The position numbers and the translations under genes were made by a program. Under the pieces are notes generated by a model that saw nothing but the letters and a program-made list of their open reading frames with translations, was not told where the DNA came from and did not search any database. A DNA stretch of 61,936 nucleotides, counting the filler, from Vermamoeba vermiformis (lineage: Eukaryota), in assembly GCA_045837725.1 (NCBI GenBank). It is 5 parts of 5 records of this genome, joined end to end, with 100 filler letters (N's around TTAATTAATTAA, not from the genome) between each part and the next. Parts side by side here need not be neighbours in the genome. Positions count along the whole stretch, not along the records: positions 17,103 to 43,788 come from JBEWZL010000190.1; 4 more parts are not named here. One strand, 5' to 3'. Below, one piece after another: positions 14,787 through 41,287 of this stretch (its first letter is position 1; the number at the start of each line of letters is the position of its first letter).

Positions 14787-15143
14787 TTTATTGCACCTCA
14801 GTAATATAGCTAAAATTCAAATGACATAGGCACGTATCTTCCGTCATGTAACAAGCTGTGGTTTTATTTTATCAAACATCAATACAAAAAGGTAAAACGT
14901 CAACAAAGGTCATTATTATTCTCGCGTAAATCGCAACCCATGATTCATTGGCATTCAGGTTCTAAGTGCCAAATTTGGCCTTCTCTATGACGACGTGCCA
15001 CGGAATGTCAAAGAGACTTCTAGAAATCAACAAAATTAAGCTTCTAGAATCAAAGACCATTGCTGTATTAAAGTCAAAGCAATAGAATTTGGAGTTTTTC
15101 GTAATTATTCAACAAAGGATGCGCAGCGATAGAAACAACTGAA

Positions 15144-17002: not shown

Positions 17003-17102
17003 NNNNNNNNNNNNNNNNNNNNNNNNNNNNNNNNNNNNNNNNNNNNTTAATTAATTAANNNNNNNNNNNNNNNNNNNNNNNNNNNNNNNNNNNNNNNNNN
17101 NN
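17003..17102. other. Artificial contig linker
   Basis: 100 nt of N with a central TTAATTAATTAA six-frame stop. Confidence 0.98.
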
Positions 17103-17209: not shown

Positions 17210-17841
17210 ACTGAGAGCGTGACCAGCAGGTCACAGGGGGATGAGAGCGTGACCACCATAGACAGAAGCGTGACCAGCAGGTCACAGGGACCGAGAGCGT
17301 GACCAGCAGGTCACAGAGGGCCGAGAGTGTGACCAGCAGGTCACAGGGACTGAGAGCGTGACCAGCAGGTCACAGGGGCTGAGAGCGTGACCAACGGGTC
17401 ACAGAGGGCCGAGAGTGTGACCACCATAGACAGAAGCGTGACCAGCTGGTCATAGGGGGATGAGAGCGTGACCGCCATAGACAGAAGCGTGACCAGCAGG
17501 TCACAGGGGGATGAGAGCGTGACCACCATAGACAGAAGCGTGACCAGCAGGTCACAGGGACCGAGAGCGTAACCAGCAGGTCACAGAGGGCCGAGAGTGT
17601 GACCAGCTGGTCACAGGGACTGAGAGCGTGACCAGCAGGTCACAGGGACTGAGAGCGTGACCAGCAGGTCACAGGGGCTGAGAGCGTGACCAACGGGTCA
17701 CAGAGGGCCGAGAGTGTGACCACCATAGACAGAAGCGTGACCAGCAGGTCATAGGGGGATGAGAGCGTGACCGCCATAGACAGAAGCGTGACCAGCTGGT
17801 CACAGGGGCAGAGACAGAGGCGTGACTAGCAAGTCACAGGA
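17210..17841. repeat. GC-rich minisatellite of 21-30-nt units with palindromic core GTGACC-N4-GGTCAC and a ~270-300-bp higher-order period
   Basis: About 20 units of gagagcgtgaccagcaggtcacaggg, interleaved with gtgaccaccatagacagaagc. The block starting at 17243 recurs at 17513. Confidence 0.95.
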
Positions 17842-17860
17842 CTGTCGCCGGTCAACTCTA

Positions 17861-19601
17861 TCAGCAAAGCTTCATTTGGTCAGCGTGACGCTCAGCCATT
17901 CGACGGAATTTCTTGTTGAACTTGCGCTTTTTGCGAAGAACGGCAGACTCGGTCTTGGCATCTTGGTTGTCCCCAATCGGATTTAACCTATTTACCGTTA
18001 ATATTGCTCTACCGTGAAAATATTTTTCGACAACGTACCTCTTAAAGGCTGCATCCAGCGAGACAAATAGTACTGACTTTGGCACCGTAGTTACGGGGTC
18101 TGTTCCTGATAGCAAGCGTCGTTTCTTAGAGGGGTTTGCTATTTCGTCTTCGGCCTTCCTCTTGCCACCCATGAGGTTTGGCTGCAATACTGTAAGTCAC
18201 GGCACATCTTTTGTTCGCTGATAACTTACTACACTGAGCCACTCTTGCACTGGATTAAAACAATTTGGATCTGGTAACAAGTTTGGCTGTGTCGATTTCC
18301 AGTTGCTTGGAAGTGTATCGTTGACCCAAGGACACGTTGTATAACAAAGGCAGGGTTTAGTTCTGGCTAGCATACCAGCAACTTGCACCGGCTCAACACG
18401 GAAGCAGTGCACAGCCACGCCACGGTACGAGTCCCTTCGATGTACAAATAACAAGGCCTCTTTGAAGTCTTTCCAAGATGAGTCCATGAAGCGTTCGTAG
18501 TTGATGTCGTTGCCAATGAAATCAATCATTTGGGTCAACAGGGTAGTGCATACTTGCAGCAAGACTTTGCGATTCTTCGGTTCGGACAAGAATCGGAAGC
18601 TGTTAGCCCACGGCACCACTTCTACAAAATGCGGATTAATACTAATCCTAGTTGCTAATGTATTCGACGGCACCGGTGGCAAATGATTTGAAAGTCATTG
18701 TCACAGCCGGGCGGATCACTCAAACTAGAATTTGAAGTCTAGCTGGCGCGTCCGTCTTTGCCATGCACGATGAATTTTAAAGTTCAACGCGCACAACTAT
18801 AGGCCAACCAAGATCGATTGAAAGGTCGATCAGAGGCGAGATCGATTGACAGGTCGATCGAAAAATCAAGATCGATTTTAAAGTCGATCAGAATCAGAAT
18901 TTTAAAGTTCTGACGTGGAGGTTTAAAAGTCTCCTTCATCGTGCATAGTGAATTTTAAAGTTCACTTTGTTGGTACTTACTGAAGTGGTAATACAAACGT
19001 TGCAATACTTCGTTGACAACGCTTAAGCCAAAGCCATTGAACAGTGATTGGTTTAGCAGTGCTTCGAACAATGTACATTTCTGGAAGTATTCAGGAGTTG
19101 CGCACAGTCGCACCTCGAGGTTTGCCACAAAGGCACTCCTCTCGCTCAGTAGATCAGGACCCCACATCGGTTCCCAGGCAAGTTGTTTGCAGAACTGGAT
19201 CGCGGGTGGTCTGCTGTCCAAATAAGCAAACACAATGTCGCTATTATGAACGTGCAAGGCCCAGTATCTGTTCAATTTGCTGGATGTTGCATCTAACAGA
19301 GACGATTGCACCGTTTGAACAAATAGACCGCAGTAGGAAAGACGTATTTTCAAACAGTAGCCCCCGTCGAAAATTAGCGCCGCTTCTTTGCCTCGAGACC
19401 GTACCTATTTAATTAAATTAAATCAGTGATTATGCAGTGTAAAAATAATCGACTTATGCTTAGTAAACGCGCAGGTGCGAGCTTGTTAAATTCATCCAGC
19501 GCTGCACTGGCAAAATTCGTTGAAATTGAAGCGAAGGTATTGCCTACGAGGTTGCCATTGGCCCATTTCTCGAATAATTTGTAGATTAAAATTTCTGGCA
19601 T
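17861..19601 (-). pseudogene. NEIL1-like Fpg/Nei DNA glycosylase, copy 1, probably decaying
   Basis: MPE start, spliced VRSRGKEAALIF, WEPMWGPDLLSE and H2TH LFEALLNQSLFNGFG..VVNEVLQRL. The first intron donor reads ATAAGT, and no in-frame acceptor is visible after the repeat inserted in intron 2. Confidence 0.75.
18719..18945 (+). repeat. 227-bp inverted repeat, left copy (intronic, MITE-like, GATCGA-rich)
   Basis: Reverse complement of 20326-20552 with about four mismatches by eye. Internal 11-bp IR TGCACGATGAA/TTCATCGTGCA. Confidence 0.95.
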
Positions 19602-19966
19602 CTTAAAAAAAAAGGTTAGTTATTTATTTTAAGGTAATAATATAAAATGAGTTGTTTTTAATTTAAATAAAAATGTTCCGTACCCTGAATGGGCTCAGTT
19701 CGATCTAATCCGAAGATGAAGGCGTCATGACGTACTTAGCTAGTACTCCACGTTGAAAGGTGGTGTAAGTCACTTTTGTAAGAGTGACGACTCGTGTGGT
19801 GGTCACTTTTGTAAGAGTGACGAAAATAAAATTTGAATCGCGCGGGATTTTGTTTTTGAAATTTCCAGAACTAGCCAATCAGAGAGCGCCGAAACACCAA
19901 AATTTTTTTTGTTCTTAGTGCGAGCACTTACCACCTAACCTGAGCTGATTAACACACGGCTACCTC

Positions 19967-22900
19967 ATGCAAGCACGAAGACGATCTGGGCAAAAGCCTA
20001 CCGCGGTTGTGTAAGTTTTAATATTTAATTTTAATTTACGCGCAAACGCGTCATTATTATGTATTGTATACGTATTCTTATTAATAATTATTGGAATATT
20101 TCAATTATTAAAAGCAAGGATGGAATTTACAAGGATGATCGAAAATTATTAATTTATTTTCAAACCAAATTTCGAAGGGCTTATTATTAATTAAACCCCT
20201 CTTTGTTAGGAAATATTAACGGGCATATTTTTCCGGGGAAACTTTACAATTTCCTCGCGAAAAAATGTCCTAATCTGGAACGGATTTTATTCGAGTGCAC
20301 CAGCGAACTTTCCCATTCGTGTTAGTGCACGGTGAAGGAGACTTTTAAATCTCCACGTCAGAACTTTAAAATTCTGATTCTGATCGACTTTAAAATCGAT
20401 CTTGATTTTTTGATCGACCTGTCAATCGATCTCGCCTCTGATCGACCTTTCAATCGATCTTGGTTGGCCTATAGTTGTGCGCGTTGAACTTTAAAATTCA
20501 TCGTGCATGGCAAAGACGGACGCTCCAGCTAGACTTCAAATTCTAGTTTGAGCTGGACTTTAACATCCAGCGTGAGCAATTTATTAAGAGCTGAACGCTC
20601 AGTTTGCACTTGCCTCAAAGACTTACCAATCTTGGGCAAGCGTTAAAATCCGGTGCACTTTTGAAATGTCAAATGTGGATCAAGTGCACGTGCACTTGAC
20701 GGATCTTTTCCGTAAAATTAAGCCGTTGTGGCTTTTTGTATTCACATCCTTGACTTAATTACAAATTCGATCTTTCAATATCGAAATAGATGATTTTAAA
20801 CTCATCTATCCCGCAGACAACAAGATAAGAAGCTGATTGTAGCTACTTTCGCGGACATTTTCATCGTTGGGTACTCTCGGCCACCACCTGGTGGTTCCAA
20901 AGACAAATTCGTTGACGCTGTTATGCGCAGAATTAATTCGTACCCAATCAAATCCTCAAAGCACAACTTATTTTTGTTGTTGCTAGTGATGTTCGAGTAT
21001 CACGAGCTGCTGGAAAATGTCACAGATCCGCTTACTTTTCCGGTGAGTGATATTTAAATGCCGTATTAAGCAAGGCTAATCTTTATGAAACTAGGAATGG
21101 TTCAAGAAATACGGTGACGCATTTACGCACAAAACTGGTCATAAAAACACGGATCCCGGTTGGCGTTGCTTGCTTGAAACGCTTCGACAATTACCAGAGA
21201 ACTTACCCAAGTTATTAGAATTGATTCGAACGGAGGTTAGTATTATTTGGCTATGTTTGGCTATACGGACGCATTAATTACTTTCTCTTGCAGTTGATGC
21301 GTCTAAAACCCAAAGCAGCAAGCAGAGACCTTGAGCACCGCGTTTACCACAAATTGATCATTGCCCTTCGATATCAATGGTACTGCTTGCTTCCGTCTAA
21401 CTTCGACGCGTTTTGGAAGGCAACGCTTCGACATCAGGAGCACGTCGACTATACTGCGATCCCGTTTACGCTTCCTCCAGGAATTGCAGTAGACCCATCG
21501 CTAATCGCAGCAATGAATAGCGTGGTTCAAGCACCCACTGTACGCGGTACGTTGGAGGAATTCGCATTTGTTTTCATACCTAACTGTTCGCAGAGGGACC
21601 GGACCCATTCCGTGCACAGCGTGTAGCCCATCGGTTTATCAGTCAATTTAATATTGGAAAGGAGCCAATAGTAATTACGGCCGAGGTTGTTAACTTATGG
21701 AAGAGACGGTTGGATGAATCTACTCAAGCTACTTCAAACAACAACAACAACAACGTGCAGTCTTTCTTTCGCCAATCATAATACCCTTGCCAATGGTGGC
21801 TTGGAGCTGCTTGCGGAGAGTGGCCCATCAGATTTTCAAATTCCATCGGTCCGAGTCAACCTTGGCTCTGCGGATGTTTCGTTGATCAGCCAGCCTGGTA
21901 GCCCAGACCAGTGGCGTGGGGATGTACCTAATTCTCCAGACTTTCTGCAATCTCTTGACGACGTATCATTTCCGGAGTTCGAGGGATATTTTGCCGGCAG
22001 TCAGTCCCGAAAGCGCCCTTTGCTTGCAGTAAGTCCGCATTAATTGATCAGATCTCGAGCAAAATACTCACCGCTTGTAGCCTGAAGGACAAGGGCCTTC
22101 TGCTAAAAGACAAAAGATTATTGGCCGACCCAATGACGAGATGGAAACGGACAATTTGCAGCCGGTGGGTCAAAGGAGCACTGAACAGGCGTTCGAAGCT
22201 TCAACGCTTGTTACTGCAACAAACTCCTCAACACCGACAAGCAATGTGGACCCGACGAGCGCCGGTGCAAGTTCGAACACCAACACCAACAATGGTCGTA
22301 CTGCTGGCAATGACGCTAGAGCTATTACTGACCACAGAAGTCATCGCGATAGCAACAGTCGCAGTGACAGCAATAGTAGTAGCCGCAGTCGCAGTCGCGG
22401 CCCCAACAGTCGCGGCCCCAACAGTCACAACCGCAGTCGCAGCCGCAGCTACAGCAACAGTAGTAGTGGCAGCAATAGCAGCAGCAATAGCAGCAGCAGT
22501 AGTAGCAGCAGTAGCAGCAGCAGCCGCAGCAGCAGCCGCAGCTACAGCAGTAGCAGTAGCAGTAGCAGCAGCAGCAATGCTAGCAAGAAAAGCAGCCGCA
22601 GTGGAAGTAGCAAGAAGAGCAGTGGTGATAATCACGCTAACCTCGACTCGTCAACATCACTTGGTAACATGCTTGAAGACAACGCCAAAGATACTACCAA
22701 CACTCCATTGCCCTCAGTGTCGTCTACTAGTGCTGAGGACATCAGCAATCTTCCGTCTGCAACTACAATGCCAGAGACCAACCACGCAACAACTGGCCTA
22801 GTTAGTGCCCCGGGTTTTGCTGTTTCAAGTCCCGTAGCAATTGAACTAGATCATAATGACAGCGCTAGCCTTCAGCCGGTTCCAGAAACGTTTGTTCCCA

Positions 22901-23541
22901 CGCTTGAGAGTGGCATTAACCCTGCGGCAAAGGATCTAACCTGCATCAGTGCTGCAGCTTCGAATGAACGTGTTGAGTTTGGCTCTTCACAAATGCGACC
23001 TGCTGAAAGCGAGAGTGCTCCCAGCCTTCAGCTTGCTACTGTGCTTGACCACCAACCCTCTGCCAATTCTTCTACTTGCCTCACCGCTGATGTGGAAATG
23101 CGTCTAGCATCAAGCCCGGTGTTACAAACAACTTCCGAGTGCGAGAGATCAGAGCCGAGCGGTGTAGACCAGCCTAAAGTTGATGCTCCTGTTGTCAATG
23201 CACCTTCAACACCGGCAACTTCCGAAAAAAGATCAGAGCCGAGTGCTGTAAACATTGATGCTCCTGGCACGGTGTTTGGGCTGTACGATCTATGGCAATA
23301 CATCTTTTCGTTTGTGGATCTGCGTCAGAGGCACAGCAACTTAGACATCTTTGCTGTTAGTCGGACTTGGTTATCCTACGCGATAAACTTCTTTGGCAAA
23401 AACAAACAGAGACAACTAAGTGGAGCTTGGACACGCTACATTGGCTTGCTTCGATTGCCTTCGTTATCTCTATCACTTCAATTTGATGGACAACCGCTGT
23501 ATTTCGATGCCCCACTCGTCGTCACTCGACGAACGGGTTAG
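19967..23541 (+). CDS. Cassette partner protein copy 1: unrecognised helical N-domain, Ser-rich linker and F-box; 3'-truncated at a TTAGGG tract
   Basis: Spliced FPEWFKKY...RVYHKLIIALRYQWYCL..SNFDA, a poly-Ser (AGY)n tract and F-box-like LYDLWQYIFSFV...AVSRTW. Confidence 0.7.
20326..20552 (-). repeat. 227-bp inverted repeat, right copy (intronic)
   Basis: Reverse complement of 18719-18945. Confidence 0.95.
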
Positions 23542-23551
23542 GGTTAGGGTT
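23535..23551 (+). repeat. Interstitial telomeric repeat GGGTTAGGGTTAGGGTT
   Basis: Directly visible; it supplies the stop codon of the ORF ending at 23541. Confidence 0.8.
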
Positions 23552-24109
23552 GTGAGTATCGCCATGCGCATTTTAAACCTTAAAAACTAACCCCAGTCTC
23601 CCGCTTTGACTTGTAGTAAATTTGTACTGGTTTTTGCTAATAATGCGCATAATTCGGATTAAAACAACATTTATTTAAACAATTTACAATACAATGCGCT
23701 CATTTTGCAATTTGCATTGCCATTTATCAATGACAATCTGCATGAACAATGCGCATTAGCTACTGGTTATTTCGAAATTTCATAGCTCGTTTGTATTTAA
23801 TGGAAATTAATACTAACAATCCGCATGCCAATAGGCACGAACAACTTCGCACTAGATGCAGTGCGGTTAGTTTTTATGAAATTTCACTGCTCGTTCTAAT
23901 TAATATGAATTCAGATTGAAAATTCGAATTAATTCGCATGAGTTAATGCGAATGAATAATTTATTTTGCTTACCATGCGAATTGATTGTTGACCATGCGA
24001 AACTTGTTTGAATCTAGCGCATAAAAAATTAGTGAATAACGAGGTACGATGCGAATGATTAAGCTGAAAATACAAGAATTTGCGTGGTTAGTTATTGTGC
24101 TTACCGTAA

Positions 24110-24720
24110 ACTAACCTATCATTCTGATCATTCGAATTGCAGAATTTGAATCTTGCATGCAAATCGAATGAGTGAAGTTAGTTCCGTGATTACTGCTAAA
24201 CTAACCTGTAATTCGAATGAATGAGTATAGTTAATTTAAATATCAAGGCACTAACCAATCATTCTGCTCTCGCTCGAATAGTAAGAATTGCCTCAGCGGT
24301 AATTCGAATGCCTGCACTTAGTTTCGTAACTACCAATAAACTAACCTGCAATTCGCATGAATTAGTTTAGTTAATTTCAAATACAAGGCACTAACCGATC
24401 ATTCTGGCCATTCGGATGGTAAGAATTGGTCTTGCCGGTAATTCGAATGACTGGAGTTAGTTCCATGATTACCGCTAAACTAACCTGTAATTCGAATGAG
24501 TGCGTTAAGTTAATTTAATTATAATGCACTAACCAATATTTTTGCTCGTTCGCATGGAAAGAACTTGCCTCGTTGGTAATTCGAATGACTGGAGTCAGTT
24601 TCATGATTACTAATAAACTAGCCTACAATTCGCATGAATTAGTTTAGTTAATTTTAAACGTAAGTCACTAACCAATCGTGATACGAATTGAATTAATGTA
24701 CAGCATTCAATCCGGGCAAT
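24110..24720. repeat. Diverged ~139-bp tandem repeat, at least 4 copies
   Basis: An ACTAACC..T anchor recurs at about 24110, 24250, 24390, 24528 and 24667, with shared AATTCGAATG motifs. Confidence 0.85.
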
Positions 24721-26327
24721 TCGAATTACTTTGTCCGCTATAGACAGTCTACAGATTATCAATTGTTAGAATAGATTAAACAGAAATAATTATGGTTTGC
24801 TTACAGTAGTGAGCGACATTTTTACCGTAAGATCTTACGGTATTAAGCAACTTTGCCGCACAATGCTACTTATCTGGCAGGGTCATAAACGCGCTCCCTG
24901 GCATTGTACTGCATGTCGTCCGAGTCCACAGCGAGTCTTGGGTATCAACAAGCTCCAGGTCGTGATGACTGAGAGGTATGAGTGCGTAGAGGGATCATTC
25001 CCTAATGCACTGTTAGTATTATGAACCGAGCCTGGCGGACTTGTTGGACTGAATGTTGAGTTTAACGAGTGCTTGACTTACCGCCGCCTAGTAGGTGCCA
25101 ATGAAGATACGAGTGTCACGCGCAGCGAACAACGCGAGAAGATGCGCATGATCCACCAGAGCAGTGCGAAGGCCTCACAGCACCTAGCGCAACGACGATG
25201 GCATTCCAAGTGCGAGATGGCAGCGATGGCTCTACGCGGTAAGTACAAGCACAGGCATTCGTCAAGACTGCGGCAATGGAATTGACCAACTTGCGCTTGG
25301 CAAACGCAGTGATCAACATTGATTACATCGCGTACCGTGTACCGTGGATGCGTTGAAAATACACTTGTAAAACTCGCTGTCAAGGCACGGAAGCTAGAGA
25401 TCAAGTTCAGGGACACGCAGTGTTGTTGGCCAAGAACTGGAGCTGCCTGCTTAGCAGTGCTCGAGTGTGTGTTCGTAGTAGAGTGTGTTGTCGTTGAAGG
25501 TAGTGCTGCCACTGCTGCCGGCCACTCCAGCTTGCCGTTGTAAAACCTGGTGGCGGTATTGGCGAGCACCCGTCCCACGCCTTGCTGGACGTGAATAATC
25601 AGGTAATTGTTACAACAAGTAAAATTTTGATCCGATCCGCGTTGAATCAATCCGTGTACACTTAATAGAGGCTTTATGATTCTATTAAATTTACAACGTC
25701 ATTAGCTATTACAATTGGCTTCTAATTGCGCTTACCAAGGTTAGAACAATAAAACGATGTTGTTTGCCGAGCGAGCGATCTAGATCCGTAACACTAGGCC
25801 TCAATACCCTGAATAAACCATCAGAGAGTTTAAAATATTACCTAATTTATATCCATACTTACAAGCTGCTATCTACGTGCAAAACTACAGATCAAACCGT
25901 ACTTGGACAAATGATCCGATCCGGATCAGAACAAGCATTGACGTATTTATTCTAATGATAATAACGAATAAATGTCATGGTTTATTAACTATAATTAAAC
26001 TTACGAATTCATTCATATAGCTGGTATCGATTTAGGTAAGGAGGATCAGATCTCGTTTTTGAAGATCGCATTTTCTACCAAATCAAATCTATTTGAGAAT
26101 AATTATGTTAATACTTAAATTATTATTCCAATAGCGTTACATTTACCCTTGTTTAAATTGAAGACAAAACCAAGATCCGCACTTAACTGATCTGTGTCTA
26201 TATTAAATAAACGAATGAGAATAGTTACAATAATGTAAGGAAGCGCTGTATATAAATTTATTATTTTTGTTTGTTTTTAAATTATATTGAATATTAACTT
26301 GAGGTTGCAAAAGACCGTTACATTTCA

Positions 26328-29185
26328 TTACATCTTCTTTGACTTTTTGGCTTCCTTTTCATCTTCGGACTTCGGCTCCAACGCGAGAGATATCTTACGC
26401 TTCTCGCCAGTGTTCCGTTGGGCACTAGGAAACAGGTTGACTCGGAATATGGAGCCCCATCTCTTCTCTGATTCCTCGTCACTATCCGGAGGCGGAAAAG
26501 GGCCTTTGCGAGCAGGTTTTGGAGGTGGGCCGCTCTTGTTTGATGCCCGCGGCGTCTTCTTGGCAGTATTGCCGAGCAAATTCTGGGACTTCTTTGGCAG
26601 AGGTGGTTCGACTCTGACTTGTTCGTTGACAGAGCTCTTAGATGTACTAGTCGTTGGTTTGACGGGAGGAGCAGGAGCTCTGTCAAGCTTCACTTCAGGC
26701 AATACGAGCACTGGGTCTGTCGTTGGTTTGACGAGAGGAGCAGGAGTTCTGTCAAGCTTCACTTCAGGCAATACGGGCTCTGGGTCTTCTCGTACAGGAG
26801 AGAGCGGCAAAGTTTGACTCGGGATATGGAAGGACTCGTTGATATTAGTGGACTTGCTCATTACAGATCTGGAGTTTGACGAGGAGACCGATGGGCTAGG
26901 AGAGCACGACGAACTGGAGCTGCTCGACTCGGAAGACGACGAAGAGCTGACTTCGTCAGAATTACTTTCATCAGCTGAGCTGGACTCGAACTCCGAGGAT
27001 GGAGCTTCAAATGAAGACCAAGAAGCTTCTTCTTCATCGTTGTCGTCTTCTCCATCGTCTTCATCGTCTTCATCTTCTCCCTCTTCGTCTTCGTCGTCCT
27101 GCTCCGACGGTTCCTCCTTGTTGAGCGCGCTTTTAGACGACTTTGCTGCCGGGCTGCTGCTGCAGGATCTCCCTCCTACCGAAGACCAGTATGCAGAAAC
27201 CAAGTGCATGAAGGGGATCATTCTGTAGCCTGGAAAATCTTTGACCGAGCCATCCTTGAAGGCCACCGTGAACTCAACCTTCGAGCGAGAAACAAATCGG
27301 TGCTTGACAATTCGATCGATGCTCTCTGCGAAGTCGTCGTTCTTCTTCTCGTACTGCTTCTGAAACTTGTTGAGCATTTTTTCCATGGAGCCTGTTGGCA
27401 GCATACCGACAGTGTTATTGACGGTTTTCAACGTGTTTTGATTGACATCAGAGCGATGAACTCTGTCGTAGTGAGTGGAGAGCACATCGCTAGAGGTGTT
27501 TATCAACGCAGCGTGCTTTTCCGTGAAGAACTTGGCAATGCCCTCTTGATCGAGCTTCAAATGATGCTCGGTGAGGAACGTGACCAAAGCACGACGGAAG
27601 TAAGTGCATGAGATTGTTCTCCCAGGAAAGTAGGAGGCCACGATGCTTTGCACAAGATTTGACAAGCCTTGATATCCTAATGGACAGAAATTCGTTAGTT
27701 ATATTACTTAAACGCAGTGGGCGTGCTTACTCATTGCATTCCCGACTCTGTTAATCCAAACAGATTCGACGCCCTTGTTCGCAACTATTGGCAGATAGCT
27801 CTCGATCCATACTCGCAAAGGAATAGAGAACGAGTTGGGAAGAACGAAGAAGTCCGTCTTAGCGCGCTTGACTTTTTCACGAGGTGGAAAAAACTTTGCA
27901 TCTCCTCCTTCGAAGACGACGTTCTAATACTTAAATAAGTAATTGATCGATAATGATAAAGAATAATTTAAACTTACTTGCTTCGTCAGCGAAGCACCAA
28001 ACTGACGTCTTTGTCCACCTAAGTGCATCAGAGTCAGCAGGTACAAATGACCCATGAACAGGGTCATTTCGTCTCTGGAAAGTTTTGACTCGCGTGCTTC
28101 TCCGTAGATGAATGCGCTATCTCGTTCGATCATTTGCGTGATCTTGTCGCACACAGACTCGTTGAGTTGACGTAGCTCAGTTTGGTCCAACCACTCACCG
28201 AGTAGCATCAGAGTTTCGGCAACAGTTTTGTTGGCGTTAGACTTGGCTATGTCTTTTGCTTCTGTTAAGACAATGTTAATTTCAGGTTGAAAAATTGAAA
28301 CTGAAGCTTACTCGCCGCAGGTATTTTCAAGATATCATTCACAGCGTCGATACGGGCACGATAGTTAGCAAAACTTTCCAATCCCTGTATTGACGTTATA
28401 GTTAGACAGGTATGGATATACCGACTAAGACTTACGTGCAAGTACTTCAAGAACATACGAATGATCTTGATCACATTGGCAATTGTCGCTGGCTTTTTCC
28501 CCGTTGACTCATACCAACAAGGGAAAGCAGTGGCAACTCTAGTGTCGAGCAAGTGCCGAACGTCAACGATTTTTGGCTGAATGACATCTGCGACGAATCT
28601 GAAGTAGATGGCCAGTGCAGATCTGGTCTCGCCACCCCTGTCTGAGCCACTATTGCTCAGGAGACCCTGCTTGACCTTGGTCTGGTCCTCAGTAGAGCCG
28701 TGAAGCCGAGTCAGCCTTTTGCGCTCGATGTATTTTTCGAATAAAGAACCAACGCAAAAGTACTTCACAGATACCTTTTCGAGAGGAAATCCCTGAAGCC
28801 TTTTTGGCGCACCAGTTTGATCGTTACCTAGTAAGAATAATAGATTGATTAGATAATGATCTGTCAAAGTTATTGACTGTTAACTTACGCGTTAACGAAG
28901 GGAAAACTCGTTCTTCAAGGTCATCAGGCACGTCGTCCATGTCGCAAACGATTGGAGCGTCAGTGAACTGAGCCAATGCGAGCTTCGCCTTGGCTATCTC
29001 TCTTTCCAATTTTTTAACTTCTACTGCAAGTGATTAGAATTGAAGCTATATTCCAATTAGCTAACCGACTAAATGAACTTACCTTTAGAAGAAGGCGACG
29101 AGTTTCGTTTTATTTTTTTTTCTTTCTAAAACAATATTGCGTTAATTACGATATTGAAAGTAAGACGTTTGTTTACCTTCTCCAT
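26328..29185 (-). CDS. Intron-containing tyrosine recombinase with a chromodomain-like module and a low-complexity tail
   Basis: Spliced product has core-binding helix KKPATIANVIKIIRMFLKYL, box I LMHLGGQRRQ, Lys in REKVKR, box II TYFRR...AALINTS..VL..HY, then IDRIVKHR...VEFTVAFKDG...LVSAYW. Confidence 0.82.
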
Positions 29186-29357
29186 GTAGAAAAACGATAA
29201 ATGGATTAAGAAGTAAACCGATTGTATTCCAAAATTGCGCACGTGATCATCTAGCGAGATGATTGGTCAGACGTGCACGTGAGCTAATTGGTGGAAAACT
29301 GACTTACGCACAAAAAAGGTAAGTATACGTCCGTGATTGAATTGTGATTTTCAGACA

Positions 29358-29768
29358 ATGCAACCAATACTTACAACAATGGCAGAACCGAAACAAGATG
29401 ACTGGTCCGACTTCACGGAGGAAGAATGCATTATGATCGACGACTTGCTAAGAATAGCGCGAGAAGATAATATTGCAACCAACCCGTATTATTCGCAGGA
29501 TGAAGAAGCAACCCAAAAAGTTGATGATTATGACGAAACTGAATACGTGACGCACCCGGAGCCAGTTGAACCTGGTTTCGATTTTATTCATTTATTAGAA
29601 GAAAACGACGAATGTTCTAGCCCTGCTTCATCCACTGATGATGAAGTACTTACGCAAAGGCCAAGTATTAAGCGAGTCCGAGAAATGGCCCGATTGTTTG
29701 GCCTAACAATGCCTGATAATGAAGACTCGAAATCCCTACCCGGAGAAACTAATGTTAATTCGAAATGA
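29358..29768 (+). CDS. Small acidic hypothetical protein divergent from the YR gene
   Basis: Open Asp/Glu-rich ORF with an apparent 5'UTR intron (gtaagt...tttcag) just before the ATG. Confidence 0.55.
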   Translation: MQPILTTMAEPKQDDWSDFTEEECIMIDDLLRIAREDNIATNPYYSQDEEATQKVDDYDETEYVTHPEPVEPGFDFIHLLEENDECSSPASSTDDEVLTQRPSIKRVREMARLFGLTMPDNEDSKSLPGETNVNSK

Positions 29769-29834
29769 ACTAAAAATAAAATTTCCTTTTTTAAATATAT
29801 TCAAATTTGTTATTATTGATTAAGTAACAACAAG

Positions 29835-31054
29835 ATGGAAAGGTATGTATTAATAAGCAATTCGAATTGTCTAACTATTAACGAAGAAAATACCTGTGCC
29901 ATTGTTCTGATAAGCACGGTCATTTCTATGTACATACCGATGATTTTTCGGAGCAGTGGCTTGGAAAGGGAGGCGTTGCTGGCTTGTTGGGCATGAGCAA
30001 AAACTCGTTCTGCTCAAAGTTGTCTTTGTACGCTCCAAACGCTCCCATCGGAACTTATCCGTTCAATAACGTCGTCTTGGAGCATTCAAAAGAGCTTGGC
30101 GCCACAAGACCAACTGTGTTTTACACTCTCGAACAAGCCAATGCAATCATCAAGCAATGGTTGACGAGACCAGGCGGGAAAAAGAGTTGGCCGATTAGAC
30201 TTTCAAGTGCTCGTGCATTTCTCGCCAGCCTGGACAGAATATCGTTAGTTGAGATTAAAGACGGTAACAATAGCTACTTTAAAATAGAACGTACTGAGAA
30301 GCAGGGTGATAAGATTGCTGCAATTCAATACGTTCATGAAACTAACAACAAAGCCGCAGCAAGACAAGAAAATAATAGTGAACCAAGCTTGTCGCCTGAT
30401 TCGAAAGAGGTGTTACTTACGCTTATGGATATGTACCAAGAGAGCAATCCGGAAGAAGCCGATATTCCGGTCGAAGAGAAGCAATTTCAAAAGAGAACTG
30501 ACGAAGAACCTGCCCGAGAGCTGCACGTGCATGAACCCAAGCCAAATAACAATGCACAAGTGCAATTGGAGGGCCAAAATCAAAAACAAGCGTATACTTC
30601 GGAGCAAAGTTGTCCCGAGATAATTGACGTTGATTCCTACGAGCCGCCAGAGAAAGGCAAGCTATACAATTGTTAAATTACGATAGAATAACATATATTA
30701 GTGTGGCAACAAACCTCGCTCGAATCTCTAATGTCCGCCAAATCGAAGAGAAAAGCTTCAGCAAGTGATAGCAAGACGAGCAAGCGAAGAAAGGAACTTG
30801 AGCCTGTCTTTGATTTTTCGGCGCTTTCAAAACCTTTCAAGGCACCTCGGAAAATCTCCGCCGCACCAACGCCCGAAGAGGAAACCAAAGAACCAACACA
30901 AAGCGAAGCTGAGCCCGAAAGCGTCAAGCCTAACACTGAAACGTTAACGAACAATGATACCGTGACGCAAGCTCAAACTCCACAAGATTCAGTCGAATCA
31001 ATTTACAAAAAATTAGCTAAAAATTTCCCAGACGACGATGAAGATTTTCAATAA
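29835..31054 (+). CDS. Multi-exon hypothetical protein with a possible N-terminal HTH-like DNA-binding domain and a disordered tail
   Basis: Spliced MERKYLCHCSDKHGHFYVHTDDFSEQWLGKGGVAGLLGMSKNSFCSKL; NLS-like KSKRK and KRRKE. Confidence 0.6.
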
Positions 31055-31189
31055 GATAAATATAAATTAACTAATGCCTGAATCATCGGCATTAATAAAT
31101 TTTACGAGTAAATAAATGCAATGTTTAACAAAATTACTTACTTGGCAAAGCCGTGTTACCAAATAAAGCAGTCAAGTTAACTAAGCACA

Positions 31190-31924
31190 ATGGAAGAGAA
31201 GCTAAGATTTACCGAAGCGCTTGCACTGCTGTAAGTATCGCCAATTAATTAATCGACGCTGACAAACTTCGTAGTCGAGAGGGGCCTGTTAAAACAATAA
31301 CGTAAGAAATTTGCGATTTTATAATATACTATTAATTATGCTAACAATCGTAGTGCGGAAAAGGTGCTTCGAGATGAAGAAATTGGAGTATATTTTATTA
31401 AAAGCGCTTACGAGACTTACCTTTCCTTACCCCTCGTAGTTTTAATGTTACCAAAGGCCCACATCTATCAATTTAGCAACTTGATAGAGATATTGCAGCC
31501 CTTGTTCAAAGGTAACAAGATTTCGAGTCTTCGGTGCTTCACGTTAAGCGACGTTCATAAAATGCTATCGCTTTATTGCCGCCAGGTAATATCTCCTGTA
31601 CAACGTAATACAGTTACTAACATTGGTTAGAATGGACCTGAGTCGCTATCAACTTTGAAAAAATTGAAAAATTTAATTAGGGAATATAACCTTGATGGCG
31701 AGATTTTTAGTTGTTTAGATCCCTCGTACCATCGCTTAATTGGCGCTTACCCTGAGTACTACAGCGACTACTTGTCTTATGGTTGGCTTCCTGGCTCTTT
31801 GGAAGCCGAACTAGGTCTTGCAAGCAAGGGTGCTGACGAGGCAAGCGTGAAAGAAGACGGTTCCGTTGAAGAAAATGAGGAGTCTAAAGAAGGAACCGTA
31901 AATAACCCGATATTATTGGACTAA
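31190..31924 (+). CDS. Multi-exon hypothetical protein
   Basis: Four exons with canonical splice sites join in frame: MEEKLRFTEALALL...GVYFIKSAYETYLSLPLV... Confidence 0.55.
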
Positions 31925-31956
31925 AATAAAAACTTTCTTACTTTGATCCGGATCGA

Positions 31957-33770
31957 TCAGATCGAAACGGGTAGCTTTTGTTTAATTTTACAAAATTTGT
32001 GGAAGTGCTTCTTGCGCTTCCGCTTAATTCTATTGATCCTAGAGTTATTATTAGAACTCGACGGACTCAGCTGGAGCACGGTCGTTGAAGGATCCATCGA
32101 TCCGACATCTGCTTGGTTCTCTTGACGCTGATCTAACCTAAATAAATGGCTTCAGTAAAATTACTACAAAAATAGCTACTACTAGCTAACACTTACTCTA
32201 CGCTATGTACTTCGCTAGCAGACTTTGTTGAACTTTCGATCTCATTGCCGAGATCTTCCGCAAGCCACTCAACTCCGTCAAAGCAACGCTCCACGAAGAT
32301 TGGCTTTTTTGGCTTTGCATTAGCCTCCTTCAATTTTTTTTTAGGAGATTCGTTAGGATCCGAATCTGCCTTTCGTTTTTGTCGCTCCAACTGGGTTTGC
32401 TTTGACGCCAATTCCTTTTTGGCTGCCGTAGTACGCATTATTACGCTCTATAAAGAATTATTTAATTTTAAATGAGGCAAATAAGAAACAAACTTACGGT
32501 TGGATCGGCTAGATGCAGCTTTACCCGAGCAGTTGCCGAGTACCAGTGGTACATGCCCACGTTAAGACTATTCTCGGTCATTTTAGTTGTCGTAGATCGT
32601 TGCCAGCCGGGTGGAAGTGTAACTAATGATTTAGAAGGGCTATCGCCAGGCACGTCTGAATCCGATCCAGATCCAGGCTTAGATGATAGCTCTTGGTCAG
32701 ACAAGGCATTATCATCATCGACTGCGAAGCAGCAAGTCGTGTAGCACTTGTTCCTGCCTTTAGTATAACAGTGAACCTGCGCATAAATATTAGACTGGGC
32801 CGTTTATAATTACGTTAACTTTTTACCTTGTTTTTACCGCTCTTATTCTTGCGAAACACAAGCAAAAACAAGTTTGAAAAATCCAGCCACTCTTGTTCCA
32901 AGTAACGAGAGCAATCAAAGTCGGTACCAATATAATCGAGAATCTGTCGAACAAATTCCGAAGTGAACACGCGCAAAGCCTTCACGTTGCATTGCTTCGA
33001 AAGAAATGCTAGTGCGTTTGTAGTAGGCGGTACTCCTATATTAAATAAATTATTATTACAATTAAAAAATAATTGAGTAGTAGTTTTTAAAAAAAACAAA
33101 TAAAAAAGGGTAACTAACCATAATGCAAGTACAATCGCTCCAGTGTCTCGTTTATAGTGTATGCACCAAGTCCATTAAACAGTGCTTGATCGTGCATAAC
33201 TTCGAACAAGCTCTTATCAAAAGCTTTGGGCCTTGCCGCTAGCTCCCTTTCCAAATGCTCGGTCCAAGTAGTCGCTTCGGACACCAAGTCAGGACTTCGT
33301 GTAGGATCCCATTGAAGGGACGAGCTGAACGCTATGGTAACGAAGTTCGGAAATTGGGCAGCTTCGACGATGAACAGGCAATTGTTCAGGTCCTTGGAGC
33401 GAAGGACAAAATTAACGTGCTCGTTGAAAGGGTAGCTCTTTACGGCAAGCAGTGGCTTCACGACAAAGTAGCCACCGAGTGCGAGATGCACACGGAGACA
33501 AGAGCCATCCTCGAATATCAGGGCAAGCTCCTTTCCCCGCGCAGTTGCCTAAAAATAACACGTTAACATTAAAAACACAAAATTTACGACAGCACTTACG
33601 GAGACTAGCTTTTTGCTGCATTTCTTATTAAATTCTTCGACGACTTCAGGCTGATTCGGATCTTTAGTCAGTGCGTAGTCTCTGCACTTGATCAATTTGT
33701 CGAATTCGATGCCGCGAAGTCTTTCAGTAAGCCAAAGAGCGAATAGTTTGTATTCGGGTAATTCAGGCAT
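31957..33770 (-). CDS. NEIL1-like Fpg/Nei DNA glycosylase/AP lyase, copy 2, apparently intact
   Basis: MPELPE start (catalytic Pro2/Glu3), spliced ATARGKELALIF..HLALGGYF, WDPTRSPDLVSE and KAFDKSLFEVMHDQALFNGLGAYTINETLERL..GVPP. These match the NEIL1 pattern KAFDRPICEALLDQRFFNGIGNY. Confidence 0.88.
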
Positions 33771-34508
33771 CCATCTGGCCAACGATCAGCACGGATTCGG
33801 AAGCAGAACATCGCCAAACAATTACTGCTGAGCGCACACTTGCTTACGGAGATATAAGAAGTGCTTGTGATCGCACCCGTGACCATACGGACACGCCCCA
33901 AGTAAGTAAGATGCGCAACAACAATAACCATCCGGATGTAAAATAACGCAGCCCTCCCGAACCAACAAAATTATAATGCTAATAATTATGTCGATTTAGA
34001 GGAGGTCTAGCGCCGGGTAATTCATTCTTCGAGGCCAACATCTCGTACCGAAAAAGACTTGTCGTGCCAACAAGCGCTAATCAGCCGGAGGACACCGGTC
34101 CGTAATTTATAATTTTTTGTAGCTACCGCTACGTATAAATTAAATAAAATATTTGAAGAATAATAAAAATAAATTCGGTTTGGATCAAATCTATTATCTA
34201 TGGTCACTCCCGTGACAATGAAATATATAATATTATAATAAAAATATTTTTCTCGGCGCATACTACGCCACAGAAATACGTAATAATAAAATTACTTACG
34301 TGTTGACTGGATTGAAAAAACGTGCTCGAAAGTCGGATGCGCAATAACCGACGCGAAATAACAAAATTCGGCTGTTGTGTTGTATATTAATATAAATAAT
34401 GTAAAAATGATTGTTTCTGATCGAATTGCAAATTTAGCGCCCACGTGGTTATCACGTGCCTTGAACTTCACAATCAGATTTTGTTTTAATTTCATTTAAT
34501 TAAACAAC

Positions 34509-37500
34509 ATGCACAAGTCTACAACGTACCTAGAGCTGCCGCTGCCTAAAAAGTAAGTCCTTGTTCGGCGCAGATGCCGATCAACTTTTAAACATTGCGG
34601 TGGTGCTTCCACCGAAATAATACTTAGAAAATTACATTTAAATATTTTAAATAAGAAATAATTAAGCCGAAAATTACCCGAAGTAATTTAAAAAATCTCA
34701 GTGACACTGAGATTCATTTCTGATCGAATAAATTTAGTGTTCCTTCGGATCCCCGTGCAGTGGAACTGCACGTAGCACGTTACGTAGATTTTTTTATGCA
34801 AACGAAAGGAGTTTCCCTTCCAAACAAAGTGAAGAGCGGCTTCGTGCAATCGATCACGCAGCATTTCTCTTCGTATGGGGAGGAATATCGCAATAATAGC
34901 ATGCTGCTATTCGTACTAACGTACTATGGTTAGTAAATTCTAAATTAATAACTTTTGAATGTCTTTAAATTGACAAATTAATTAGCTTACAACGGATTCA
35001 TATTCGTGTCCGAGAACAACCACTTTCAGCAACGTTATCCCTTATGGTTCGAGGCATACAAAGCGGTGCTGACAAAGAAGCTATTTCTCAACGCAAGAAA
35101 CGGCACGGAATGGACATACGTTACCGAGGTGTTTCGTCGCTTTCCTGACGCGCTAGACACGTTCGTCACCTGGGCTACCGATTGGCATCGAGAGAACGTA
35201 CAAGAGTATGCAAATCTCGACGATAAAGAGCGAAGGAAGCGCGTATACTACCAAGTGTTTTGCGCAATGCAATATCACGTCAAGTTTTGCTTATGCAAGG
35301 CGAACTTCTACGCTTTGCTAGATAGCACAAAAGGCATGGACTTCGCGGAGTACACTACTCCGTTCTTTTCAAAAACAGCTCTTGTTGACGAAAACAAAAT
35401 ACGTAAGTATCAGTTCAAGTAAATTTGTAAACTAACTCTAGAAATAGAGCGCTACGTTCCACCACAGGGAGAACACGGTTATGGCAAAGGCGATCCTTTC
35501 GCTCCGTTTGGTAAGTTATAAGATTACTTTATTGCTCTTAAAAAATACCGATAAATTCTTGACAAGCTAACCTAAATAATGGATAGTTATAAACGAAAAT
35601 AACCGACAAATTGCCGAGTATTTCACGAAGGATCCCTTTGACGCCGAATCGTGGAATTCCAAAAAACGAAAGTTAGTAAGTGCAAAACGGAGTTTAACGA
35701 AGAGTTGACTTGCTAACTATACGACAGGACAAGGTATCGGGAAACTTAGACAAGCAGAACAACATTCCTCCCGCTCTTAGAAATGCACCGATACTTGGCC
35801 CAGCTTTCCCGTATGCAATTGTTCGGCCGGCCAAGAGCTCGGAAACTGTTCCGCTCTATGAACGTGCGCGTATCCAGGCAATCAGCAAAGGGCAGCTAGT
35901 TGCTAGTCCTTCTGATACAGCTGAAGACACGTCAGTCGGGATGGAGATAGAGAACACAAACAACGAGCACAGAACTCCTTACGAACAGGCGTCGGTGAAT
36001 TTCTCACCGTATGTACCACCTCCTTATCTTCCACCACCGTACGTTCCACAAGCGTACGTCCCGCCATCGTACCCGCCACAATACGGTGCACTATACGCAC
36101 CATACAATTACTATGTACCTCCAGCGTATTGGCCTGGTCAGGGACCGTATTCATTGCCTATCCAACTGTATAACCAATACGCTGGATACAATACCGTGTA
36201 CGATCAGAATCAAGCCAGAGCGAGATATAAACAACCTTCTGATAGTGTCAATCCTGGCATCATTACGATAAATAACTCTGAAAAGTCGCAAAAATCCCTT
36301 ACTGTAGCAGCGCCGCAGACAGTTGATCGCTCAGAGAGCACTCAAGTACCGCCCGTAGCTAATACAGTACCGCGCTCCACAGCTTCGTCGAGTTCAATTG
36401 CGATAGCCGCGACGCAGACAGTTGATCGGTCACAAAATAGTCAAGTACCGCTCGTAGCTAATTCAGTCCCGTGCTCCACAGCTTCGTCAAGTTCAATTAC
36501 GATAGAAGCGCCACAGACTATAATTGATCGTCCCGTAGCTAATACAGTACCGCGCTCCACAGATCCGTCGAATTCAGATACTACACCAGCGCCGCAGACC
36601 ATAGTAGATCGACCAGAGAACACTCAAGTACCGCCCGTAGCTAATACAGTCCCGTGCTCCACAGCTTCGTCGAACTCAGATACCACAGCAGCAGCGCAGA
36701 CCAAAATTGATAGTCAAGCACCGCCTCTAGCTAAATCTGTCCCTTCTTCGAGGGTAGAGACCCCTACGGCAGGAGGCAAGGACGAAAGTACAGCTAAACC
36801 CATCGAAACCAAACCGAAATCTGAAGTTAGCGGTTACTTCTCTTTTCCCTCTGTGTTACCTCCGATAACGGTATCAAGCGCACGCAGCGCTTCGGTCGCA
36901 AACACAATTTCTCTTGCCAAGTTCAGTGAATTACCCAAACCGATGCGTGACAACACAGTTTTTCGGGTAACTTTAGAAAAACTACCACACGACGCTAGTA
37001 CTTCAGTCATTGACGCAAGTACTCACAGTAGCCGTACGTAGCCCATATTAGTATAAAATTTAGGTCTAACTATTTTTAGTGGGCGCCATGGCAGTTATTC
37101 CAAAAGAGCTACTCGACGTGATTTTCTCGTATCTAGTTGCGTATGTCAGTTCAATACGCAGCTTGATGGACACGTGCAAGGAGCTACTCTTCAATGGCAT
37201 CAACTACTTACTGTCGGTCCCCCCGTTACAAATTTGGCTCTCAAACGACACAAAACACGTACAACGAATGCTAACCGCGTTCGATATCCCACATAAGTGT
37301 CTTCAAGTCATGAAGTGGGATTTTGAACTGTTGCAAAAGTTGAGCCTAGTTGCAGTGGCAAGGCGCAAGTCCCAGCATCATGATATATTTCTCAAGAGGT
37401 AACCATCGTAAAGTCATCTTTATAACAAGCTAATCTTTAATAACCCAGGAATTGGAATCTGGCAACACGTGCGTCTGTCGTTGTGTTAGATCTCAGAGTT

Positions 37501-38716
37501 GAAGAATTGCATCATTATTTTGACTGGATAATGGAAGTTTCCACGTCAATGCAGGGGATAGTATTCTGTGTTTTAGACGCGTATTTGCCCGAACGAACTC
37601 GCTTGGCTTTGGACGATAGAGTCCACAAGAAAGTCAAGCAAAAGCAAGTTGTCCTCCTGGGAATTGGTTCTCTCACCCCGAGAACGAGCGATTGGAGCCC
37701 AAGCAAATTGCTTCTTGATCCTCCAACAACGCTCGAATACCTCAGTGTCTCAGTCTTCAAACCAAGCATATCAACGTGGGGATGGAGAAATTTATCAAAT
37801 TTGAAGTACTTGCGCATCGACTTGCCTCACGGCATTCAAAGAAAACTCAAAAACGTCGAATCGATTAACGAATACTTTAGTGTTGGTGCTAACACTGACA
37901 CTACAAAGAACATGCTTCAGTGGATCAGCTCTTATATCCCTGGTTTGATTGGCTTGCAAATAGCGCTACACGAACCAGATTGGGAGACGAACACCGCCTG
38001 TTATTACTCGTCGTTATGGGACATTTGCCCATTTGGTCGCCTGGAATATTTGAATGTCATCGGCAGTTTCGATTGGGTTCTTCTTGATAGATGCAAGCTA
38101 CATTTGCCAGGCTCTCTCAAAGCGCTTGCCTTGACGAATGCGAGCCTCCGACAGAAGTCGTGTTCTTCCAAGTGCGAGCACTTATCGCAACTTTTAAGCA
38201 GCAAGACGACACTTCACGTTGGCACTAACACAGGCTTGAATTGGCAAGAAATTCTGATCCATCAAATGTTACCGTAAGCATTACTTTTACTTTTTAATTT
38301 GTTCGTACTAATTGCTACGTAGGTGCTTACATCCGTCCAACGCAAATCCTCCAAGAGTGCACAGTCTTATATCGTTTGTACGACGCTTTGCCCTAACAAT
38401 TTGCACGGAGGTATTAAAGTGGCCTCTTTCAGAACAAGCAAAACGGTACTGCAATTTGATGGATCAAGCTTACGTAGCGTTCGAACCTGTGTTAGTAAAA
38501 ATTCCAGGCAAAGAATTGAAGCGAATCGCCGCGATTGGTCCTGCTATTGACCACAAAGGTACTATCACGTACTTTCCGAGTAGCTACAAATGGAATTCCG
38601 CTATCAAAGAGGATCGCAGCAGCAATTCGTCCAACATTGACAGGAATATGCCATTACCTGAGCTTGAAACTTTAACATTGCGCAATAATTTCGCCGTACC
38701 TAACTTGTTATTTTAA
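34509..38716 (+). CDS. Cassette partner protein copy 2: unrecognised helical N-domain, Pro/Tyr-rich and S/T repeats, F-box and LRR-like region
   Basis: YPLWFEAY...RVYYQVFCAMQYH..CL.KANFYA; ~34-aa repeats APQTVDR..TQVPPVANTVPRSTAS; F-box IPKELLDVIFSYL...TCKEL; LEYLSV and LKYLRI repeats. Confidence 0.75.
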
Positions 38717-41111: not shown

Positions 41112-41271
41112 TGAAGCGTGTGATTTCTGTAACGAATTGCGAATATCGTTGGAACGATATTGCGCATCGTTAGGGAAATGTCCCTTTCGATAGCATAAAT
41201 AGCGCTGTAACTATCACAATAAACGTCTTCTTATCCTACTCCTTGTCTTACAATCATTTCATTTGGTTCCG
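41112..41271 (+). promoter_or_regulatory. 3' part of a 5' LTR (left boundary uncertain) and primer-binding site
   Basis: CATAAATA at ~41194, AATAAA at ~41218, LTR-like end CA at 41260-41261, then TT and TGGTTCCG, which is complementary to a tRNA 3' end (Glu-like). Confidence 0.6.
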
Positions 41272-41287
41272 AACATACCGGTCAACA

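Follow-up and report, generated by a model that had tools for sequence, protein, structure and literature searches.

Two copies of the same two-gene block, each holding a diverged NEIL1-type glycosylase gene head to head with a gene of a very rare protein family, lie side by side in a genome assembly of Vermamoeba vermiformis; the analysis itself points to a probably fungal organism from a root environment as the source of the contig. They probably go back to one old duplication of the whole block, with copy 2 being a working pair today and copy 1 degenerating or changed in role. Both blocks are part of record JBEWZL010000190.1, within a window of 61,936 nucleotides (filler included), by which we mean the whole stretch of DNA that was analysed. 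The ancestral block would have combined the NEIL1-type glycosylase with a nuclear-looking partner, and orientation, head-to-head layout and intron positions would simply have been inherited from it.

In copy 1 the glycosylase start codon is located at 19601 on the minus strand and the partner start codon at 19967 on the plus strand, leaving a spacer of 365 bp between them (19602–19966). The corresponding positions in copy 2 are 33770 (−) and 34509 (+) with a spacer of 738 bp (33771–34508), so that in both copies the two genes are on opposite strands and head to head with ATGs less than 1 kb apart, just as an earlier note on this DNA had described them. All four gene models, which were built from coordinates, are open, and their splice sites are GT-AG with one exception. 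At the protein level the two glycosylases share 34% identity over 306 residues (E=1e-50) and the two partners 24% over 185 residues (E=6e-11), the latter match being confined to the N-terminal ~185 residues. At 24–34% protein identity a dN/dS value for the two copies would be saturated. A lack of similarity between the partner proteins would have refuted the earlier note, but this similarity is indeed significant in the N-terminal domain, and the two proteins are members of a single small family that is also represented elsewhere. It was also right in calling the DNA of the two copies not visibly alignable, because blastn found no similarity between them and tblastx found it in the glycosylase exons only. 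The intron positions that it listed as shared could be confirmed as well: in the alignment of the two glycosylases, column and phase agree both for intron 1, which precedes RGKE and has phase 0, and for intron 2, which comes after the H2TH stretch and has phase 1. In addition, both partner genes start with a first exon of 44 nt ending in phase 2. Thus both genes are homologous between the blocks and agree in order and orientation, as in a segmental duplication. Neither a third copy of the glycosylase or the partner nor, by tblastx, further collinear paralogy around the two blocks was found within the window. As one block duplication gives the same orientation in both copies, the shared layout can be explained without selection, and a layout found twice within the same genome amounts to one event in its history and is no repeated evidence for selection.

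Both glycosylases are related to NEIL1 and are predicted from their sequences to be diverged DNA glycosylases/AP lyases of the Fpg/Nei superfamily. In PDB searches exon 2 of copy 2 matched human NEIL1 with E=2.1e-6, exon 2 of copy 1 alone with E=0.033 and a profile of both with E=3.3e-7, and with NEIL1 entries filling the top 15 rows of each search, human NEIL1 was the only significant PDB family for exon 2 of both copies. Exon 3 of copy 1 had no NEIL1 match in the PDB. When single exons were scanned for the Pfam family Fapy_DNA_glyco (PF01149, cut-off 25.5 bits), exon 2 and exon 1 of copy 2 reached 16 and 13 bits and the copy-1 exons gave no match. Each copy contains all motifs named in the earlier note, namely MPE, RGKE, FNG.G, VHC...CYTTC and a basic tail. 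Both models begin with Met-Pro-Glu, which in Fpg/Nei enzymes provides the proline nucleophile and the catalytic glutamate. The profile places the RGKE stretch at residues 50–60 of the human NEIL1 chain (−1.2 bits alone), and its lysine is presumably Lys54 of human NEIL1, a functionally conserved lysine; base excision would then rely on the proline at the N-terminus together with the lysine of RGKE. Human NEIL1 (PDB 1TDH, 5ITQ, 6LWA and others) thus has in common with both copies the Met-Pro-Glu start, the lysine stretch and also W.P..(G/S)P followed by the LFNG.G H2TH stretch, and the domain order with a disordered basic tail at the end is the same.

In contrast to an ordinary orthologue, the two copies have diverged far more from human NEIL1, as can be seen from E=2e-6 for exon 2 of copy 2 compared to E=6e-44 for the full-length NEIL1 match of a relative on metagenomic contig L001. 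This relative starts with MPELP like copy 2 and aligns with residues 1–213 of the copy-2 glycosylase. Two paralogues are present here, one of them with a degraded N-terminal motif, and the stretch after the H2TH is without a PDB sequence match. Fpg/Nei proteins carry a zinc or zincless finger at this place, as outlined in an excerpt of PMC9001079. A zinc-finger reading of VHC...CYTTC was dropped, because its Cys and His residues are not conserved in relative L003. By eye, a hairpin-like stretch with Arg follows the H2TH in both copies (KGRNK in copy 2, ARTK in copy 1), at the place where L001 and human NEIL1 read GR(R/T)IWF.

The copy-2 glycosylase gene (31957–33770, −) encodes 506 aa in six exons (33770–33600, 33548–33119, 33035–32827, 32776–32498, 32447–32197 and 32137–31957). 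It does not end at 32193, as a transcript joint revealed an extra intron (32138–32196) and the sixth exon reaching to 31957. This joint comes from run X3, one root metatranscriptome whose contigs show presence and not absence, and in which spliced joints were found at introns 2, 3, 4 and 5 of the gene with intron ends GT..AG. The copy-1 glycosylase gene (17861–19601, −) gave an open 409 aa model with five exons (19601–19458, 19404–18981, 18621–18230, 18181–18039 and 17987–17861). Its intron 1 has the non-canonical donor ATAAGT, and its N-terminus reads MPEILIY, without the second Pro-Glu, compared to MPELPEY in copy 2. No transcript of this gene was seen among the X3 contigs.

The copy-2 partner gene (34509–38716, +) encodes 1217 aa in nine exons (34509–34552, 34738–34928, 34986–35402, 35442–35510, 35587–35675, 35728–37033, 37080–37398, 37449–38273 and 38323–38716), of which intron 5 is confirmed by an X3 joint from 35675 to 35728, and a loose contig end at 34932 fits intron 2. 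The protein consists of an N-terminal helical domain, a KRK stretch, a long low-complexity and disordered middle, a weak F-box-like stretch and a C-terminal domain of ~400 aa. For the copy-1 partner (19967–23541, +) we obtained a model of 835 aa with seven exons (19967–20010, 20817–21042, 21095–21235, 21294–21546, 21594–21754, 21807–22028 and 22081–23541), whose weakest part is intron 5 (GTGCAG..TTGGAG). Here the N-terminal helical domain is followed by a Ser-rich middle and, by eye, an F-box-like stretch, and the gene ends at 23541, so that the last ~400 residues present in the copy-2 partner are missing; a counterpart of them was found nowhere in the window. RNA support for the copy-1 partner was not seen in the X3 contigs either.

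The label of an F-box protein given to the partners in the earlier note is weak, as the F-box-like stretch of copy 2 scores E=0.03 and 14.6 bits against a Pfam cut-off of 24.3, and neither the copy-1 tail nor the full-length relative P0019 matched a Pfam family. Moreover, the alignment of the F-box-like stretches of both partners is no better than that of shuffles, 125 of 1000 of which reached the observed score. Neither Pfam nor the PDB gave a match to an LRR, WD40 or Kelch type for the C-terminal domain, for which alternating strand and helix predictions were obtained and the structure model of its exon (pLDDT 37.7) was unusable. A lead from a language-model Atlas (score 0.86) pointed to a cluster with an LRR family in 24% of its members. 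The C-terminal domain may be F-box/LRR-like, and with its weak F-box-like stretch the copy-2 partner bears some resemblance to F-box/LRR adaptors of SCF complexes, but unlike in these, the conserved part of the partner family is the N-terminal helical domain.

To take a closer look at this family, a profile of the N-terminal domain was run against 1,835,955,588 representatives and returned nine proteins. The partner family is thus very rare, and it has no name: Pfam gave no recurring family over all ten members, the fold search with the N-domain model (pLDDT 70.9) against the PDB found nothing at E≤0.001 (best E=1.9), the N-domain had no match in the Atlas, and Atlas matches for the partner had scores of at most 0.92 and fell into clusters without names. 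The C-terminal exon of the copy-2 partner resembles P0019 (E=3e-4), and a word-indexed search with P0019 among proteins of similar length returned none out of 8000; no full-length annotated relative was found in the word-indexed protein searches. On metagenomes the partner profile found 42 pattern stretches, none of which was confirmed, the confirming copy-2 exon being only ~20% identical to distant members on long contigs. The glycosylase profile found 3 of 185 candidates, and on metagenomes 3 of 169 were confirmed, all on contigs of 1.1–1.5 kb that showed no partner signal but whose length leaves no room for a partner. A word-indexed search with exon 2 of the copy-2 glycosylase, directed at longer proteins, yielded no match among 676 candidates.

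In a tree of ten rows the copy-1 and copy-2 types of partner form separate clades (support 98/97 and 99/99), showing that the duplication predates the splits within them. Each of the four genes is closer to relatives elsewhere than to its own paralogue in the window. The ortholog-like ORF P0011 has 60% identity with the glycosylase of copy 2 and 31% with that of copy 1, and P0012 is 52% identical to the copy-1 glycosylase; P0002 and P0005 share 60% and 49% with the copy-1 partner, and P0003 and P0004 share 46% and 48% with the copy-2 partner. A near-identical exon ORF of the copy-1 glycosylase is also present in a public source (P0010), and exon 4 of the copy-1 partner agrees with library protein P0001 in 125 of 127 residues.

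The earlier note concluded from the conserved layout that the pair is held in co-regulation by long-term selection. Its underlying homology of the partners stands, but selection and co-regulation do not follow from it, as one duplication suffices, the spacers are without a common motif, copy 1 shows signs of decay and expression was seen for copy 2 only. In such a functional module the partner would regulate, target or degrade the glycosylase or act in the same repair path, for example as an SCF-type substrate adaptor, with the spacer serving as bidirectional promoter. Both pairs have kept adjacency, orientation and short spacers despite 24–34% identity, own-type relatives of all four genes in other sources indicate that both pairs have been kept for long, and basic NLS-like stretches occur in both proteins; from such basic tails a nuclear location may be assumed. 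Also in line with a module, spliced transcripts of both copy-2 genes are present in one sample, X3, at similar word depth (1.3–4.1). However, the copy-1 partner is without the domain that would carry an adaptor function, the support for an F-box is below threshold, and beyond AT-rich words no motif was common to both spacers, with one 11-mer as the longest common word (shuffles: mean 0.27, maximum 6). Taken together, we regard a module kept by selection as unlikely. The two neighbouring genes may have a promoter or a function in common, but this is less likely than not. Both pairs have remained adjacent since a duplication old enough for this divergence, which fits a constraint on the pairing that a purely historical reading need not assume.

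Divergent or bidirectional gene pairs are defined by start sites less than 1 kb apart (excerpts of PMC2670823 and PMC2648788), and more than 10% of human genes are arranged in this way according to an excerpt of PMC3552671. The pairs described here are likewise on opposite strands and head to head, with the distances of 365 and 738 bp being measured from ATG to ATG. According to an excerpt of PMC4551913, differential regulation holds for most of the divergent pairs that were inspected in yeast, which speaks against the module and shows that a head-to-head layout alone is no proof of co-regulation. Different from typical bidirectional pairs, two old paralogous copies are found side by side, and the copy-2 spacer itself lies under a transcript contig, as the unspliced X3 contig 33862–34338 covers part of it. 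The two transcription units may therefore overlap rather than use one compact promoter in common. Two CACGTG boxes are present in this spacer, at 34442 and 34453. Copy 1 was absent from the X3 contigs, which is weak evidence as these show presence and not absence. From the raw RNA runs X12–X14 127–150 reads were placed per run, and a fraction of 0.95–0.99 of these continues into unlike sequence. Runs X4–X10 showed small word shares. Literature searches on NEIL1 in fungi and on bidirectional promoters showed no pair of NEIL and F-box genes.

The surroundings of the two blocks are rich in repeats. A MITE-like element of 227 bp is located in intron 2 of the copy-1 glycosylase (18719–18945) and a second copy in intron 1 (806 nt) of the neighbouring partner gene (20326–20552), both being 98.2% identical by blastn and in opposite orientation. 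A telomere-like 12-mer sits where the copy-1 partner gene stops, with a satellite behind it (23538–24677 in total, with the 138/277-nt satellite at 24110–24677); the 12-mer alone is not significant, since 8 of 100 shuffles also contained a match. A gag/RT retroelement is present at 41174–43788, and an expressed gene without annotation is found between the two copies. One could thus think of the cassette as belonging to a mobile or selfish element, or as being carried by it as cargo, with the copies being old nearby insertions. Yet neither gene is prolific, as the 9 and 3 hits of their profiles show, no terminal repeats bracketing either copy were found by blastn, and the gene between the copies had no transposase, integrase or other match in Pfam or the PDB, which makes this origin highly improbable. 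A tyrosine-recombinase reading of this gene was rejected, as Pfam and PDB gave no support for it. Scanning the window for Rfam families and tRNA genes gave nothing, and a CpG depletion at copy 1 (observed/expected 1.02–1.06 compared to 1.18–1.22 at copy 2) was set aside, the difference being too small.

We therefore return to one old block duplication as the preferred explanation. Copy 2 is taken as the working pair because transcription and splicing were observed for both of its genes. Copy 1 appears to be decaying, since its glycosylase lacks the second Pro-Glu at the N-terminus and carries the ATAAGT donor, and its partner is without the C-terminal domain. Copy 1 may instead be functional, as its ORFs are all open and copy-1-type relatives in two other sources keep strongly conserved motifs; the ATAAGT donor may reflect an error of the assembly or a peculiarity of the strain. 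A misassembly could likewise account for the truncated partner of copy 1, because the truncation adjoins the satellite and the telomere-like stretch. Further copies may exist outside the window, and the cassette might be able to move.

In summary we have documented very diverged NEIL1-like paralogues together with corrected gene models. As a far-reaching and rather improbable idea, the diverged glycosylase and its partner might form an obligate two-gene module for DNA repair or base modification in a fungal lineage, whose head-to-head arrangement survived both an ancient duplication and later speciation, with the partner as a dedicated regulator or as an adaptor for targeting or turnover. If the linkage is functional, it would offer a first handle on a protein family of only nine relatives in 1.84 billion representatives, and it would suggest that, outside animals, a NEIL-type glycosylase has a regulator specific to its lineage.

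Four gene models were assembled by coordinates after a three-frame reading of both loci, and all four have an intact open reading frame: the glycosylase at 17861–19601 (minus strand) and its partner at 19967–23541 (plus strand) in copy 1, and the glycosylase at 31957–33770 (minus strand) and its partner at 34509–38716 (plus strand) in copy 2. The two glycosylases align over 306 residues with 34% identity (E=1e-50) and the two partners over the N-terminal ~185 residues only, with 24% identity (E=6e-11), confirming the divergent pair in two copies that an earlier note had proposed from the sequence. Its description also holds in that the motifs MPE, RGKE and LFNG.G occur in both glycosylases, no alignment between the copies was found at the DNA level, and the first and second glycosylase introns (phases 0 and 1, respectively) lie in identical alignment columns. 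Two further glycosylase introns are equal in phase but fall within the poorly aligned tail, and copy 2 has one intron more than copy 1. In each of the partner genes the first exon is 44 nt long and ends in phase 2; the later introns of the two genes agree only partially. As tblastx between the copies recovered the glycosylase exons alone and no other collinear paralogy around the pairs, the duplicated block consists of these two genes.

In a PDB search exon 2 of the copy 2 glycosylase matched human NEIL1 with E=2.1e-6, that of copy 1 with E=0.033 and a profile of both copies with E=3.3e-7, while no other PDB family was significant for this exon; Pfam scores on single glycosylase exons were below threshold. 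The metagenomic relative L001, which matches NEIL1 over its full length (E=6e-44) and aligns to residues 1–213 of the copy 2 glycosylase, is by sequence similarity a bridge between the latter and the NEIL1 family. The finger region gave no sequence match in the PDB, and we do not interpret it as zinc-binding because the relative L003 does not retain its Cys and His residues.

For the partner, a profile of the N-domain exons found just 9 proteins among 1,835,955,588 representatives, namely the window's own exon, two of the copy 1 type, two of the copy 2 type and four more distant ones. A 10-row tree was built from both window N-domains and the public proteins P0002–P0006, P0008, P0013 and P0019, omitting P0001 (the self match) as well as P0007 and P0009, which are represented by longer cluster-mates. 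The copy 1 and copy 2 types form separate clades (support 98/97 and 99/99) beside a third partner clade (95/99). P0019, a cluster-mate of 724 aa, is organised like the partner, its N-domain being followed by a basic stretch, a Ser-rich spacer and then the C-terminal domain; its C-terminal part is similar to an exon of the copy 2 partner (E=3e-4). No Pfam family was found in members of this family, and the predicted N-domain structure, all-helical with a pLDDT of 70.9, had no fold match in the PDB. The F-box assigned to the partner is weak: a score of 14.6 bits, below the cut-off of 24.3, was obtained in the copy 2 partner only, and the F-box-like stretches of both copies aligned no better than shuffles.

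RNA from three raw-read runs under the source's species label (X12–X14) and from the root metatranscriptome X3 was placed on 17800–37799. The three raw-read runs, of ~1.85 billion letters each, had no proper match over 20 kb and gave only partial matches, 95–99% of which run on into unlike sequence and which are uninformative on these genes, whereas X3 contained near-identical spliced transcripts. The organism of the contig may differ from its label, or these libraries may not express the region. The X3 contigs span 26471–37142, leaving copy 1 uncovered, and their spliced joints match introns 2, 3 and 4 of the copy 2 glycosylase and intron 5 of its partner, with a loose end compatible with partner intron 2. 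An intron seen in X3 at 32138–32196 removes the previously assumed glycosylase stop and leads to a sixth exon ending at 31957, which in its start and its basic tail is similar to the final copy 1 exon. One unspliced X3 contig (33862–34338) lies in the copy 2 spacer, and thus transcription units may extend deep into the spacer or overlap there. Two CACGTG boxes, at 34442 and 34453 and 11 bp apart, are located just upstream of the copy 2 partner start codon; the copy 1 spacer has none. Between the copies, a gene at 26331–29375 (minus strand) is expressed and spliced, with five X3 introns, spliced ORFs of 355 and 456 aa and an acidic/Ser-rich tail, and had no match in Pfam or the PDB. In the region 29882–31941, minus-strand GT-AG introns from X3 (30230–30420, 30662–30714 and 31884–31941) run antisense to long plus-strand ORFs (29882–30673, 30692–31051 and 31325–31924). 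Once spliced, the minus strand shows no long ORF there with an evident likeness to a known protein, and the transcripts may represent antisense RNA or long 3'/5' UTRs.

The eukaryotic DNA of the window has a G+C content of ~41%, and ordinary genes surround the pairs (an RSN1-type channel, threonyl-tRNA synthetase, ABC ATPase, LRR proteins and a gag/RT retroelement). The remains of the latter at 41174–43788 (plus strand) comprise two ORFs, one gag-like with a zinc knuckle and one for a reverse transcriptase, the latter entering a masked stretch. Further LRR ORFs and, by eye, F-box-like ORFs are present at 13014–14816 (minus), 59120–59485 (minus) and 60039–61920 (plus), and such genes seem numerous in the genome. 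Introns are 39–83 nt long with mostly GTAAGT donors, many with CTAAC/CTAAT-like branch sites close to the acceptor, a pattern that points to a probable fungal origin. Every intron of the copy 2 pair is GT-AG; the first donor of the copy 1 glycosylase is ATAAGT, and reading the locus revealed no canonical in-frame substitute. The near-identical public ORF P0010 differs from this glycosylase at three residues; in copy 1 two of them are changed from R to W (codon TGG) and from R to C (codon TGC), and a C precedes the odd donor. Together these changes suggest that the gene may have undergone recent CpG-type decay; CpG statistics are nearly flat. The copy 1 partner ORF stops at 23541 within a short telomere-like stretch followed by a 138/277-nt satellite, and a counterpart of the ~400-residue C-terminal domain of the copy 2 partner is absent downstream and across the whole window. 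The segment 23538–24677, in which a telomere-like 12-mer ends the ORF before the satellite, may mark the site of an old break or fusion, or a join made in assembly. A 227-bp MITE-like element is present twice in inverted orientation (18719–18945 and 20326–20552, 98.2% identical), occupying introns of both copy 1 genes mirrored about the spacer; P0012, an ORF of a relative, extends with similar letters into the same glycosylase intron. A 29/51-nt tandem array (17213–17808) lies directly downstream of the copy 1 glycosylase stop, beside the masked 17003–17102.

A single duplication of the head-to-head block would account for all features common to both copies, and for this reason the two do not provide independent evidence of selection. 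Some constraint on the pairing is favoured by the fact that both pairs stayed adjacent through deep divergence and that all four genes have surviving relatives elsewhere. The idea of a co-regulated unit kept by selection is partly supported; it is not demonstrated, since the spacers share no motif, copy 1 is damaged and expression was seen for copy 2 only, in a single sample; moreover, published abstracts describe head-to-head gene pairs as common (PMC3552671) and often not co-regulated (PMC4551913). The confirmed metagenomic contigs with glycosylase relatives are 1.1–1.5 kb long, and a scan of metagenome contigs with the partner profile confirmed zero relatives. The gene arrangement itself is of an ordinary kind. 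Judged from their sequences, the two glycosylases belong to the NEIL1 kind, of which they are new and diverged members, and the partner truly represents an uncharacterised neighbour family.
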